DNA of 59,565 nt from Chloroherpeton thalassium (GCA_020722095.1 DYLM01000005.1:1-59565); one strand, 5' to 3'. Shown: positions 4,483-7,808, counted from the stretch's first letter. Made by a program: numbers and translations. Notes: a model not told the origin generated them from the letters alone.

Positions 4483-5128
4483 TCTTCAATTTCCTTAATG
4501 ATTTTTTATATCTTTCTTCGTCTCCATTATTTTCTTCATTCATAGATTTAATATTAGAAAAGTAAAATTCATCTATCCAATTATTACAACTAATTAAGGA
4601 CATTGATGGAATCATTTCTTTTCTTGAATCAAAACACCAATTTATATATTCACGAGCTCTGTTTTTTATTCCATGTTTTTCAAGTTTGTCCAACAATCCT
4701 TTTGCATAACCCCAACATTTTGCTCTTTGAGTAGGATTCTCAGTATATCCTCTATCTTTCCAATTTAATTCTAATGATAATTTTCCATATTTCTTCCTCC
4801 ATCTTAATTTAATATATTGTAAAATATGAATTGGTTTCCAATCTTTAGAAAGCAATTGATTACAATTCATTTCTGATAATATTTTTTTCATCAAATCTTG
4901 TTTTTGTTTTCTTTTCATTATTTTAGAACGAATTGGTTTTTTTACAAAAATTATATTAGAAATTTTTTCTTTTGGAGAAGTAGATAATAAGAAAGTTTTG
5001 CCATTAGAAACAGAAATTGGATTCTTCAAATGATCAGGCCATCTAATTACTAATCCATTTTCATCCAATCCTTTTACGCCATTCAAATCTAAAAATAATG
5101 CCCCATTTGGCAGTTTTTTAATTGTCAT
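4469..5128 (-). CDS. Hypothetical protein (replication module)
   Basis: This is a 219-aa ORF translationally coupled to both neighbours. No motif was recognised. Confidence 0.5.
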   Translation of the reverse strand: MTIKKLPNGALFLDLNGVKGLDENGLVIRWPDHLKNPISVSNGKTFLLSTSPKEKISNIIFVKKPIRSKIMKRKQKQDLMKKILSEMNCNQLLSKDWKPIHILQYIKLRWRKKYGKLSLELNWKDRGYTENPTQRAKCWGYAKGLLDKLEKHGIKNRAREYINWCFDSRKEMIPSMSLISCNNWIDEFYFSNIKSMNEENNGDEERYKKSLRKLKNGIL

Positions 5129-7808
5129 ATTTTATGCCCAACATACTTAACAATTCTACCAATTTAATTCTTGATGAATTAAATCCCTCATCCACTACAT
5201 CTTTTATCAACTTTTTTCTTCCAGTTATTCTCTCCCACATAGCCTGTTCTATTGTTTCTTCTGTTATAAGATATAAAATATTTATTTTATCTTTCAGTTG
5301 ACCAATCCGATCTATTCTTCCAGTACGTTGCTCCATTGTAGCAGGATTCCACATGATATCATAATGAATCAATATATTAGAACCTACCAAATCCACACCC
5401 TCTTTTAAAATATTTGATGTTAATAAATATTTTATTCTACCATTAGGATTGTTAAATTCTGTAACAATTTCGTGTCTTTTAGCTTTATTCTTAGCTTCGT
5501 TGTTTCCGTGTGCAACTACAATTTCTTTTTCTTTATATCCTGCCCTAATCATTTCTCTTTTGAGTATTTCTAACATTTCTGTATAAAAACAGAAAATTAC
5601 AATTTTATCATTAGAAAATTGTTGACTAATAAGTTCCAATAACAAATCTATCTTAGCAGAAGAATTTTTTTCATATCTCAACAACTCTGTGCTAAGGCAA
5701 CATTGTATAAGATATTGAATTTGAGACAAAATAGTTGCTATTGTAACTTTCTTTCGTCTTATTTTATCTTGTATATTCTTTCCTATATTATTAAGAACTT
5801 CTCTATAACATTTTTCTTGAACACTTGTAAGTTTACACCAATAAGCAGATTCTAATCTTTCAGGAAGTTGATCAAATACTTCTTCTTTTTGTCTTCTTAT
5901 TTTAACTGGATCAAGCAGTTGTATGACTTGTCCTGTGTTTTTATATCCTGTTATTCTTCCAAAAAAATCTGTTTTAACATGTCTATTAAAAAATTTCCCT
6001 GGGCTATCTCCTAAAACATCCTTATTAACTATTAACATTACATTGAAAATATCCATGAATGATGTTTCTATAAATGTAGCTGATAAAGCAAAAACATATT
6101 TACATTTATTTGCCAAATCTTTCGCCAACAATGATCTTTTAGTTGTACTGTTCTTGCAATTAGAAATAAGTACATTATTTGCAAAATAATTATTATTATC
6201 TTCTATTTCTAAATTATAGACATAATTTCTTTCGCAACTTGAGAAATATTCTCTATAATTTTCTTGTTTGAGAATCTCAATGCTCTCCACCCTAACATAT
6301 TCAACATTAAATTCTTTTTCTGATCTAAATGTTTTTCTCTTATAGTATTGTGAGAATAACCATCTACTTCTACTGCAATTTTTCTTTCTGGACAAGCAAT
6401 GTCTATTTTGTAACAATTTGATAATTTTTTTATTAAATTTTTTAAAGAAATTGTTCTTACAGAATATTCTAATCCCCAATTGTATCCAAATTTTTTTAAT
6501 TCTTGAAATAAAATCATTTGTGGCTTTGGTATCTTTCCATTTCCTCCACGAACTGTTGGAAAAGGTCTGCCTTTTAATTTCTTTTTCACTTTTTCTCTTA
6601 TTTTTAGATTTTTCATTAGATTCTGGATTTCCATCAATAATTTCATATCTGGTCTTTTCTTCCCAGTCTTCTTTATTCCTGATTTTATTCCTGTAAGGAT
6701 ATGTCCATGTTCTAAACAACATGCTTTTCTGTGTTGGCTTTGGTAACGAAAAAATATTGTTCCGCACAATTCGCAGTTCTGAATTGATAGAGATTCTGCT
6801 CGCGTTTATATAACCTTTCTTTGTATAAATTTTATGATTGGCTGTACAAATAATTTCTCCATATTTATATTTTATCTTTATCAAATCTGTATAAAGTTCA
6901 TTTCTAAATTTCGATACAATAGTTTTATATTCTAATAGATTTTTACCAATATTGTATGATAAAACCTTTACATCTAAATTATTCTCTACAATTTCTCCTA
7001 TATTGATTATTCCTTTATCTGTGATTATTTCTGTACAGTAAGGTACACAATATTGTGCCTCGTCTAATATCAAAACTCTATCAACTTTATAATTTATATT
7101 TTCCATATGAGGAAATAAATAAAATTCCCAATCTCTATAAGATGTTTCATAATGTGTTATAATAAAAGCATTTTTCTCCATAATAACACGGCGATACAAT
7201 CTTATTCTTTCTTTTTTATCTCCCTCAATGATATATACTTTTCTTTTTTTTCCAAGAAATTTATATATATCATCTCTCCATTTTCTTTTTAAAGAATTTG
7301 GACAGACTATGATGACGTTGTGAGCTTTTTTTTGATGTAGCAATGTTTCTGCTGCGAGGATTGATTGTGGAGTTTTACCCAAACCTACAACATCGGCTAA
7401 TAGAACTCTTCCCCCTAATTGTAAAAAATGAGCTCCAATGGTTTGGAAGGGAAGCAATTTATTTTCTGTGGGAATTAAATCATTATATTGAGATATAACA
7501 ACTTTAGATTTATTAGAAATTTTCTTTATCTGAGTTAAAATCTTATTACGATAATACAATTTTTCTGCATCATTATAAACACTTGCTGAAAAAATAATTG
7601 AATCTTCCACATGTTCTTTTTTCAAAGAATCTAAAAAGATTCTAAAACAATTGTTTCCAATTCCCCAACATCTTTCTTTAGGAAACCATCTTGAATTTTC
7701 TTGATCCTTTATTATTCTCAGGATTACATAAAATTTATCTGACTTTATCCTCACCAAAAAATAATTTGGTGAAGATGATCTGGTTATCCAAATCATTTGC
7801 GCCACCAA
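5118..7808 (-). CDS. SNF2/RAD54-family helicase interrupted by an intein in motif II
   Basis: Motif I is LLADVVGLGKTPQS. Motif II is split as LILDEAQY|C...N|CKNSTTKRS. Helicase-C motifs are LKEGVDL and QRTGRIDRIGQ. Confidence 0.85.
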   Translation of the reverse strand: MVAQMIWITRSSSPNYFLVRIKSDKFYVILRIIKDQENSRWFPKERCWGIGNNCFRIFLDSLKKEHVEDSIIFSASVYNDAEKLYYRNKILTQIKKISNKSKVVISQYNDLIPTENKLLPFQTIGAHFLQLGGRVLLADVVGLGKTPQSILAAETLLHQKKAHNVIIVCPNSLKRKWRDDIYKFLGKKRKVYIIEGDKKERIRLYRRVIMEKNAFIITHYETSYRDWEFYLFPHMENINYKVDRVLILDEAQYCVPYCTEIITDKGIINIGEIVENNLDVKVLSYNIGKNLLEYKTIVSKFRNELYTDLIKIKYKYGEIICTANHKIYTKKGYINASRISINSELRIVRNNIFSLPKPTQKSMLFRTWTYPYRNKIRNKEDWEEKTRYEIIDGNPESNEKSKNKRKSEKEIKRQTFSNSSWRKWKDTKATNDFISRIKKIWIQLGIRIFCKNNFFKKFNKKIIKLLQNRHCLSRKKNCSRSRWLFSQYYKRKTFRSEKEFNVEYVRVESIEILKQENYREYFSSCERNYVYNLEIEDNNNYFANNVLISNCKNSTTKRSLLAKDLANKCKYVFALSATFIETSFMDIFNVMLIVNKDVLGDSPGKFFNRHVKTDFFGRITGYKNTGQVIQLLDPVKIRRQKEEVFDQLPERLESAYWCKLTSVQEKCYREVLNNIGKNIQDKIRRKKVTIATILSQIQYLIQCCLSTELLRYEKNSSAKIDLLLELISQQFSNDKIVIFCFYTEMLEILKREMIRAGYKEKEIVVAHGNNEAKNKAKRHEIVTEFNNPNGRIKYLLTSNILKEGVDLVGSNILIHYDIMWNPATMEQRTGRIDRIGQLKDKINILYLITEETIEQAMWERITGRKKLIKDVVDEGFNSSRIKLVELLSMLGIKYDN
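6159..7049 (-). mobile_element. Intein (297 codons) inserted in the DEAQ box of the SNF2 helicase
   Basis: Block A is CVPYCTEIITDKGIINIGEI. Block B is CTANHKIYT (TxxH). Blocks F/G are YVYNLEIEDNNNYFANNVLISN followed by a +1 Cys. Joining the exteins gives DEAQYCKNSTTKRS, a normal SNF2 motif II. Confidence 0.8.
6209..6769 (-). CDS. DUF559/Vsr-like (restriction-endonuclease fold) nuclease ORF nested in the intein in the +1 frame
   Basis: YKIDIACPERKIAVEVDGYSHNTIREKHLDQKKNLMLNMLGWRALRFSNKKI matches the DUF559/Vsr-type core. The listed start is TTG. This frame is open further upstream to 6805 and includes a CELC...CCLEHGH Cys/His cluster. Confidence 0.6.
   Translation of the reverse strand: MCGTIFFRYQSQHRKACCLEHGHILTGIKSGIKKTGKKRPDMKLLMEIQNLMKNLKIREKVKKKLKGRPFPTVRGGNGKIPKPQMILFQELKKFGYNWGLEYSVRTISLKNLIKKLSNCYKIDIACPERKIAVEVDGYSHNTIREKHLDQKKNLMLNMLGWRALRFSNKKIIENISQVAKEIMSII

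Follow-up and report, generated by a model that had tools for sequence, protein, structure and literature searches.

A Vsr-type endonuclease gene, probably overprinted in the +1 frame, within a helicase motif II intein of a tailed phage

Introduction

The stretch of DNA considered here (DYLM01000005.1, positions 1 to 59565, of assembly GCA_020722095.1; 59.6 kb, 31.6% GC), hereafter the window, is a genome fragment of a tailed phage that carries, on its minus strand, a gene for an SNF2-family helicase interrupted by an intein. Part of this intein is open in two reading frames, and the second frame, shifted by +1, encodes a protein that resembles a homing endonuclease. The locus thereby raises the question of whether the same nucleotides serve two genes, or whether the second frame reflects an assembly artefact, ribosomal frameshifting, or a relic. 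An earlier sequence-only reading of the window had offered three explanations: an overprinted free-standing homing endonuclease with non-canonical initiation, entry and exit by programmed frameshifting, or two compensating assembly indels. Here, we conclude that an independently translated homing endonuclease gene (HEG) is probably overprinted, in the +1 frame, on the linker of a contiguous motif II intein, and that at the family level this overprinting is strongly supported. The elements concerned are the following (positions are counted from the first nucleotide of the window).

5118..7808, minus strand: SNF2-family helicase gene, host of the intein, identified by Pfam (stop codon 5120-5118)
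6159..7049, minus strand: intein of 297 residues in helicase motif II (DEAQY^CKN), with Cys1, block B TANH, C-terminal ...VLISN, and Cys+1
6209..6805, minus strand: +1-frame open reading frame (ORF) for a homing-endonuclease-like protein, 198 codons plus TAG 6211-6209

Results

Chance cannot explain the two open frames

From 6805 to 6209 on the minus strand, the DNA is open both in frame 0, which belongs to the SNF2 intein, and in the +1 frame, which belongs to the nuclease; the dual-frame observation is thus confirmed, with the coordinates and description that the sequence-only reading had given. Among the off-frame open runs in the window's long genes, the nuclease ORF is by far the longest, the next one spanning 74 codons, and elsewhere in the SNF2 gene the +1 frame meets a stop about every 13 codons (70 in 896). 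In a chance test of 20,000 trials, the nuclease protein was held fixed and either synonymous codons were resampled from window usage or codon order was shuffled. Under either scheme, about 18 intein-frame stops were expected over the nuclease ORF (minimum, 7), and 0 were observed. Because an intein-frame stop can arise only where a nuclease codon ending in T stands before one that begins with AA, AG, or GA, its avoidance is visible at synonymous sites. In the window nuclease, T-ending codons occupy 0 of the 67 positions that precede such codons and 51 of the 130 positions in other contexts; across the window's long genes, they make up 35.6% in the AA/AG/GA context. Chance cannot explain this dual openness.

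The +1 frame encodes a predicted Vsr-fold nuclease

The +1 frame encodes a DUF559/Vsr-like nuclease core, as had been proposed. Its product matches Pfam DUF559 (PF04480) at 49.2 bits (E, 5.4e-13; cut-off, 20.6) and has 41 homologues in the protein collection, the best of them at E 1e-27 with 37% identity over 94% of the query. The plan of the family comprises one or two CxxC...CxxC/H zinc (Zn) ribbons, an NPM motif, RGGNG, CYKIDIA, AIEVDGxSH, DxxK, LGWxVLRFSN, and a short C-terminal helix. Two modules were delimited in the window copy.

6701..6775, minus strand: single Zn ribbon (CELCGTIFF...RKACCLEH), nuclease residues 11-35, with C11, C14, and C29 nearly invariant
6218..6418, minus strand: DUF559/Vsr-fold catalytic core, nuclease residues 130-196 (CYKIDIA ... 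AVEVDGYSH ... D..K ... LGWRALRFSN)

All invariant and nearly invariant residues of the family are retained in the window nuclease. More specifically, core residues Y132, K133, D135, E146, G149, H152, D161, K164, G172, W173, F178, and N180 are family-invariant and all present, as is the catalytic Asp/Glu/His/Asp set (D135, E146, D148, H152, and D161, each invariant or nearly so). Pfam detected no N-terminal domain besides the CxxC...CxxC/H Zn ribbon. The AlphaFold2 model of the nuclease has a mean pLDDT (predicted score in the local distance difference test) of 88.6, rising to 91-98 in the core, and its top Foldseek matches are the catalytic domain of I-Bth0305I (3R3P), the DUF559 protein 3HRL, and E. 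coli Vsr (1VSR). The best match was 3R3P (E, 1e-3; template modelling [TM] score, 0.72 on target), and 3HRL gave a TM score of 0.79 on target. When PDB was searched with the single sequence, only 3HRL was found; a profile search recovered 3HRL at 3.5e-11 and also reached 3R3P, in a weak alignment (E, 0.008; 56 residues) that places an N of I-Bth0305I opposite D148 and aligns no His. Taken together, sequence and model assign the protein a predicted Vsr-like fold and place it in the DUF559/Vsr-fold endonuclease superfamily. By analogy with Vsr-like/EDxHD homing endonucleases, we infer nuclease activity, a target site, and homing for the window protein.

The surrounding intein is contiguous and has a foldless middle

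The SNF2 ORF matches Pfam SNF2-rel_dom (4e-22), Helicase_C (8e-21), and Intein_splicing (1e-9), the latter at 38.7 bits for the window intein (cut-off, 35.8). Cys1 of the intein is the TGT at 7049-7047, directly 3' of the DEAQY of motif II, and the element ends at AAT TGC (6161-6156), i.e., the terminal Asn297 (6161-6159) followed by the nucleophile Cys+1 (6158-6156). Block B is present as CTANH, with C68, T69, and H72 invariant in our alignment A4; R253, V254, Y278, E281, and N297 are likewise invariant. The longest SNF2 ORF starts from TTG 7808, and both the gene caller and database protein P0042 (892 aa) start from ATG 7796. Three parts of the intein are distinguished by the AlphaFold2 model.

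6753..7049, minus strand: N-terminal splicing region, intein residues 1-99, all beta (AlphaFold2)
6321..6752, minus strand: intein-frame linker, residues 100-243, K/R/S/N-rich, without predicted fold; the off-frame shadow of the nuclease gene
6159..6320, minus strand: C-terminal splicing region, residues 244-297, a VRVESIEIL strand followed by blocks F and G (YVYNLEIEDNNNYFANNVLISN), from AlphaFold2 and the alignment

The splicing regions of the model are all beta, as a HINT domain would be. Block-mean pLDDT is 88-96 up to residue 90 and 79 for residues 91-100 in the N-terminal region; in the C-terminal region, which has a strand at 247-260, it is 94 for residues 251-260, and residues 276-297 are also high. 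The linker between them reaches only 31-48, in agreement with the low-complexity intein-frame middle that had been noticed earlier. We assume from the sequence that the window intein is splicing-competent, an activity suggested by the conservation of its catalytic residues and by the host frame being kept open family-wide.

The nested layout recurs in relatives

A search with the SNF2 protein returned an intein-less homologue (P0043, 48% extein identity) and several intein-bearing SNF2 proteins. In each of five SNF2 relatives (L001-L005; GC, 30-59%), the intein contains a +1 ORF for the same nuclease, 229-314 codons long. Scanning genome and viral contig collections with the nuclease alignment yielded 160 further loci; a strict catalytic-core pattern, applied to these, to the loci fetched earlier, and to the window, retained 95 distinct ORFs (GC, 27-68%; phage and bacterial contigs). 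In 91 of the 95, no stop interrupts the host (-1) frame over the full length of the nuclease ORF. Over 24,854 codons, we counted 56 host-frame stops versus 1280 expected, and all 56 fall in four non-nested loci, with none in any of the 91 nested ORFs. Stops in the third frame number 1734, relative to 1648 expected. Consistently, T-ending codons make up 0.8% of those preceding AA/AG/GA-starting codons across family ORFs, relative to 24.6% elsewhere.

The layout is also visible from the side of the intein. A HMMER search with the window intein recovered 506 representatives (50%-identity clusters; E < 1e-10), and the off-frame shadow of the nuclease core (LQ[SNDG][RG]...RxRW, which corresponds to CYKID...EVDG) is present in at least 109 of the best 151 of these matches, as well as in 24 of 25 further representatives inspected. 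Among the intein representatives examined (best 151 of 506), none has the nuclease in frame. The hosts of this intein clade are SNF2, other DExH/ResIII helicases, and giant methylase-helicase proteins, and the site is always motif II.

These counts bear on the proposal that the nuclease was an ordinary endonuclease domain, in frame in a bifunctional intein, until a compensating pair of indels from assembly or sequencing shifted it. This idea has no more than formal possibility in its favour; the window is a single metagenomic contig, and the exact protein occurs on one contig only. The displaced intein frame, being unconstrained, would then carry about 18 stops, and it has none. Furthermore, the nuclease ends at its family's natural C-terminus and stop, no representative examined has it in frame, and the +1 layout recurs in 91 independent ORFs from many assemblies (at least 90 independent ones) and technologies. 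The expected stops and this recurrence refute the two-indel proposal, to which we give next to no probability.

Most nested relatives possess initiation signals of their own. Specifically, an ATG lies upstream of the first CxxC in 83 of the 91 nested ORFs and only GTG or TTG does so in five more, such that three, the window included, lack a canonical start upstream of the Zn ribbon. A Shine-Dalgarno (SD)-like motif is found 5-16 nt before the canonical start in 57 of the 91, and some of these motifs are strong (GGAGG; upstream sequences include ACGGAGGAACAA and AAACAGGAGGCA). The +1 frame opens at variable points, i.e., 3-118 codons before the first Cys. The relatives' own ATG and SD support independent internal initiation and disfavour frameshifting as the family mechanism. 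We therefore weighed the programmed +1 ribosomal frameshift from the intein frame, yielding an N-extein-N-terminal intein part-nuclease fusion that ends at TAG 6209, against this background. It would account for the missing start codon of the window copy, and it recalls a viral contig locus (L106) in which the N-extein and the N-terminal intein part share the nuclease frame; L106 is a lone case and could be an indel. Canonical starts upstream of the Zn ribbon in 88 of the 91, many with a strong SD, and the widely varying opening distance speak against it. Inspection by eye found no slippery or stimulatory motif in 6805-6775, nor any convincing slippery sequence in 6830-6770, and a +1 shift upstream of 6806 would meet a TAA. 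Programmed frameshifting, which the sequence-only reading had entertained, is accordingly very improbable.

Several loci depart from, or disguise, the nested layout. In L007 and L009, the nuclease lies in the +1 frame inside complete helicase ORFs with inteins (881 and 914 aa; L007:3262-5907 and L009:3367-6111) that are fully open and were mis-annotated: in each, the genes called were the nested nuclease and a "Helicase_C" fragment from the C-terminus, the N-terminal half receiving no call, which looks like a systematic annotation error for nested architectures. A reading of the nuclease homologues as free-standing proteins was rejected on the finding that these two lie within helicase ORFs that had been left uncalled or wrongly divided; the "STISK" at their C-termini is intein block F seen in the other frame. 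A free-standing homologue is found at L144:1513-2151, directly upstream of a helicase gene and overlapping its start; this locus has no intein, its -1 frame has 29 stops, and it provides a natural control that may reflect the ancestral state. At L106:2218-4481, the N-extein and N-terminal intein part run in the nuclease frame and end at the nuclease stop, and the C-terminal intein part and C-extein lie in the -1 frame, which is open from 2808; the locus represents either a nested one disturbed by a single indel or a natural intermediate with the N-terminal intein part fused to the nuclease. The nuclease gene at L008:3953-4911 adjoins a Metallophos (SbcD-like) gene with no host helicase, and its -1 frame holds a degenerate C-terminal intein remnant (VRMESIEIL...HVRNFEVEGD), such that the HEG seems to have moved along with a piece of intein. 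A decayed copy (RGGNP for RGGNG) occurs at L029:2764-3488 in the cultured bacterium Polaromonas glacialis R3-9, with 2 host-frame stops, a degenerate block F remnant, and no helicase. Finally, P0253, of the same intein clade, lacks the overprinted Vsr-type gene and instead has an HNH-like insert in frame (…HHINGIRTDNGINNLKLL…).

Selection acts on the nuclease frame in relatives, and one segment serves two folds

Amino-acid identity was compared in 10-residue bins across 4095 pairs of nested ORFs, and between the Zn ribbon and residue 180 each bin has a nuclease-frame value roughly double the host-frame one (e.g., 0.63 versus 0.26 at RGGNG and 0.80 versus 0.49 at GWxVLRF). Substitutions were counted in 27 pairs with 76-99.8% identity across their final 450 nt; the pairs are non-independent, and the pattern is uniform among them. 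By nuclease codon position 1/2/3, the counts are 396/398/1093, and 46% of substitutions are synonymous in the nuclease frame versus 11% in the host frame. Identity and substitution patterns together show that the nuclease is a functional gene in the relatives, where its frame is under purifying selection, and that the host-frame linker is constrained essentially only against stops. The suggestion that both frames are selected thus holds for the absence of stops beyond chance and for the nuclease frame, and not for the amino acids of the linker. We also rejected a true domain in the intein-frame linker, given its pLDDT of 31-48, a host-frame identity about half that of the nuclease frame, and substitutions that are mostly non-synonymous there.

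An exception to this one-sided constraint lies towards the 3' end of the nuclease gene, where the two products share a stretch in which both models are confident.

6212..6311, minus strand: dual-coded folded segment, nuclease residues 165-198 and intein residues 247-280

Here, the GWRALRF strand and C-terminal helices of the nuclease overlie the VRVESIEIL strand and the start of block F of the intein, and the motif pairs hold family-wide (LGWxVLRF with RVxSIEIL; STISK with VYDLEV). The last ~100 nt of the nuclease gene therefore also encode intein beta strands, and the two elements are physically entangled.

Such an overlap is reminiscent of fractured genes, in which a free-standing HEG of the Vsr-like or GIY-YIG type separates the halves of a split intein (Dassa et al. 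2009, PMC2677866), and the locus could be read in that way, with the halves translated separately, the nuclease between them, and the open host frame irrelevant. The two cases are alike in nuclease family and in how the HEG's 3' end overlaps the C-terminal intein part, and the GTG for the Val of VRVES could in principle start that part. In the window, no stop and no non-coding spacer follow the N-terminal intein part, and the C-terminal part has neither an SD nor a Met. Above all, host-frame stops have been eliminated over 200-300 codons throughout the family, a pattern intelligible only if ribosomes read the host frame from end to end. We consider a fractured gene at this locus highly improbable.

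Expression of the window copy

Where the relatives have a start codon and often an SD, the window copy presents only the following candidates, in keeping with the earlier remark that its nuclease frame has no ATG and no SD and that its TTG falls within the CELC pair.

6782..6784, minus strand: ATT, sole near-cognate start candidate upstream of the first Cys, 3 codons before CxxC, no SD
6767..6769, minus strand: TTG, sole canonical start near the N-terminus of the open +1 stretch, inside the CELC Cys pair, no SD
6806..6862, minus strand: +1-frame mini-ORF of 18 codons, from ATG 6862-6860 (MEKLFVQPIIKFIQRKVI) to TAA 6808-6806

A number of observations weigh against an intact, expressed overprinted gene in the window, as follows: (i) the open +1 stretch upstream of the Zn ribbon, which amounts to ten codons only after TAA 6808-6806, contains no ATG, GTG, or SD, and the window's genes, which include those for a large terminase subunit, a portal protein, and a DnaB-like helicase and lie nearly all on the minus strand, normally have SDs (GGAG/AGGA); (ii) in the closest relative, L001, the equivalent ATG-headed frame continues into the nuclease, whereas in the window it is cut by the TAA; (iii) the window has one Zn ribbon, two modules being present in 47 of the 91 nested ORFs and a single one in 39; (iv) block F/G departs from the family consensus, reading NNNYF...ISN versus NHNYF...VSN (i.e., Asn for His in block F), and the penultimate intein residue is Ser; and (v) no close relative of the window phage was found in viral contigs (nuclease and C-extein queries) or in INPHARED (blastn with the intein region), and an exact-protein look-up likewise returned nothing. 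Regarding the fourth point, NNNYF also occurs in some relatives and a penultimate Ser is the family norm; the departure calls for caution without disqualifying the element as an intein.

A scan of 6100-7200 for sigma-70-like promoters and terminators gave results at or below shuffle expectation. A T4-late-like promoter (TATAAATA at 6869-6862) was rejected because such motifs are not enriched in the window (12 observed versus 13 expected).

The first three points fit a narrower alternative, in which the family architecture is the same and the window nuclease is untranslated: an incipient pseudogene that lost its start and first Zn ribbon and has not yet gained stops, the intein surviving, in effect, as a mini-intein with an extended loop. 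It would belong with the few nested ORFs (3 of 91) that lack a canonical start, having lost the frame that L001 keeps continuous from its ATG and, relative to the 47 with two, a Zn module; the family's NPM also reads NLM in the window copy. On the other side, 198 codons remain open in DNA of 32% GC, where the +1 frame otherwise stops about every 13 codons, every invariant and nearly invariant residue is kept, the ATT at 6784 sits exactly at the ATG position of 9 relatives, and 39 of the 91 likewise manage with a single module. The fully kept invariant residues and the open codons in AT-rich DNA imply selection on the window copy at least until recently. We regard the pseudogene as possible, if rather unlikely. 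Translation may start at ATT 6784, at TTG 6769, or by reinitiation after TAA 6808-6806, giving a weakly translated copy, or there may be no expression, the copy then being a very young relic. Of the explanation that combined overprinting with non-canonical initiation, the overprinting is thus borne out by the relatives (83 of 91 with their own ATG), and non-canonical initiation appears peculiar to the window copy, which may be silent, rather than a family trait.

Insertion sites suggest mobility

The nearest extein (P0043, 48% identity) is intein-less and reads DECQYLKN at the corresponding motif. Among intein-bearing hosts, exteins are 20-26% identical (one is not alignable), relative to 38-60% for the splicing domains. 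Two insertion points lie three codons apart in motif II, namely DE^CHxxKN in most hosts and DExQ[FY]^CKN in the window and L001; P0056 has DEAQA^CRH. The 1199-aa SNF2 protein P0165 bears two inteins of the window type, both with an off-frame nuclease shadow, one in motif II (DE^C) and the other at LIDS^C ... HN^CMIRKRK, which shows that the element colonised at least one further site. Sequence comparisons of this kind fit an element that homes among helicase genes; cleavage by the nuclease is presumed from its family membership.

Discussion

We propose that an independently translated HEG is overprinted on the linker of the motif II intein, and the locus would then work as follows. Ribosomes in the host frame would traverse the nuclease gene without meeting a stop and produce a precursor whose intein has an unstructured loop of ~145 residues. 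Intein residues 1-99 and 244-297 would assemble and splice in cis, giving a helicase joined at DEAQY-CKN. The nuclease would be made separately from an internal +1-frame initiation site and, by analogy with Vsr-like/EDxHD homing endonucleases, would cut intein-less helicase alleles near the motif II codons, after which repair would copy in the intein and the nuclease gene as one unit.

Out-of-frame intein endonucleases as such are already documented. Non-canonical inteins with a HEG in another frame or on the other strand are attributed to Gorbalenya 1998 in the preprints that cite it. Actinophage inteins include antisense LAGLIDADG, antisense VSR-like, and same-strand frame-3 endonuclease VII-like HEGs (bioRxiv 10.1101/2025.01.02.630785), and a cyanobacterial dnaX intein has a +2 LAGLIDADG HEG (bioRxiv 10.64898/2026.09.14.751524); both preprints call out-of-frame or antisense HEGs in contiguous inteins rare or extremely rare. 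The window element shares with these a contiguous intein, an unstructured, foldless in-frame middle, an entire HEG ORF that occupies another frame between the splicing blocks, and, in its relatives, a HEG frame under purifying selection, and the proposed origin of such inteins is a mini-intein invaded by a free-standing HEG. An SD and start of the HEG's own are absent from the window and present in relatives. The window type differs in being same-strand +1, in combining a Zn ribbon with a DUF559/Vsr fold, and in residing in helicase motif II. Whereas the preprints call the known cases rare, the window clade amounts to hundreds of clusters at 50% identity, among which no in-frame member was found, and whereas secondary ORFs in the actinophage preprint typically lie outside the splicing domain, here the 3' end of the HEG is dual-coded with folded intein strands.

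Other systems resemble the locus in part. Like the window, fractured genes (PMC2677866) have phage DNA-metabolism hosts, and the HEG overlaps the C-terminal intein part at its 3' end by 6-69 bp (~100 nt in the window). In them, however, a stop ends the host frame behind the N-terminal intein part, a spacer of 27-51 nt follows, the C-terminal part begins at its own Met, and trans-splicing is obligatory, whereas in the window the host frame runs uninterrupted over 5118..7808 through a contiguous intein, as it is stop-free in 91 of 91 nested ORFs. SNF2/DExH helicases are also outside the eight host types listed for fractured genes. I-Bth0305I, the intron-encoded prototype of EDxHD homing endonucleases (Taylor et al. 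2011, PMC3239194; PDB 3R3P), is similarly a phage mobile-element nuclease with a Vsr-like catalytic fold and a separate N-terminal DNA-binding region; it differs in being encoded in an intron, its sequence tie is weak (E, 0.008), the window protein being much closer to the DUF559 protein 3HRL (3.5e-11), and the N-terminal module of the window protein is a CxxC...CxxC/H Zn ribbon. Lastly, the ShiLan-type hidden HNH endonucleases in phage methylase genes (PMC11855218) are likewise overprinted, out of frame, on a stop-free host gene and lack a recognisable ribosome binding site, but they are of the HNH type and no intein or splicing element was found with them, whereas the carrier in the window is a bona fide intein.

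Full-text literature searches, outside which most subscription journals fall, turned up no account of inteins in helicase motif II that carry a Vsr/DUF559 HEG on the same strand in +1. Thus, the same-strand Vsr-type family in motif II appears unreported. The sequence-only reading had known of no inteins carrying this nuclease family in this arrangement: that remark appears to stand for the same-strand +1 Vsr layout, and must be qualified in that Vsr-like HEGs accompany split inteins (PMC2677866), an antisense Vsr-like HEG is known from actinophage inteins, and same-strand out-of-frame HEGs of other nuclease types have been described (10.1101/2025.01.02.630785; 10.64898/2026.09.14.751524). The window clade stands out by its abundance, by in-frame members being apparently absent, and by a conserved folded segment with dual coding.

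Beyond the locus itself, we lean, by a modest degree, towards overprinting being stable and obligate in a very large, apparently undescribed motif II clade, in which the Vsr-type HEG would always be in +1 and never in frame, and in which ~30 conserved codons would be dual-coded. If so, the fates of the nuclease and the splicing element would be coupled, the dosage of the nuclease could be set independently of the host protein, and the clade would represent a living intermediate between free-standing HEGs, fractured genes, and bifunctional inteins, as predicted by the "splicing-first" model.

In practical terms, compact nucleases combining a Zn ribbon with a Vsr fold, with presumably diverse motif II targets, are a candidate source of site-specific nucleases, and inteins that tolerate unstructured inserts of 150-250 residues are relevant to intein engineering. 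For annotation, nested elements pass for decaying inteins or for mini-inteins whose linkers are junk, or else their host gene is broken up in the calls (as in L007 and L009), and this mislabelling by gene callers and intein surveys leaves the nuclease or the intact host gene unannotated. For evolution, the family offers a large natural data set on how inteins acquire endonucleases, why these persist out of frame, and how two conserved segments share codons, with natural controls of its own in the free-standing L144, the frame-switched L106, and the decayed L029 and L008.

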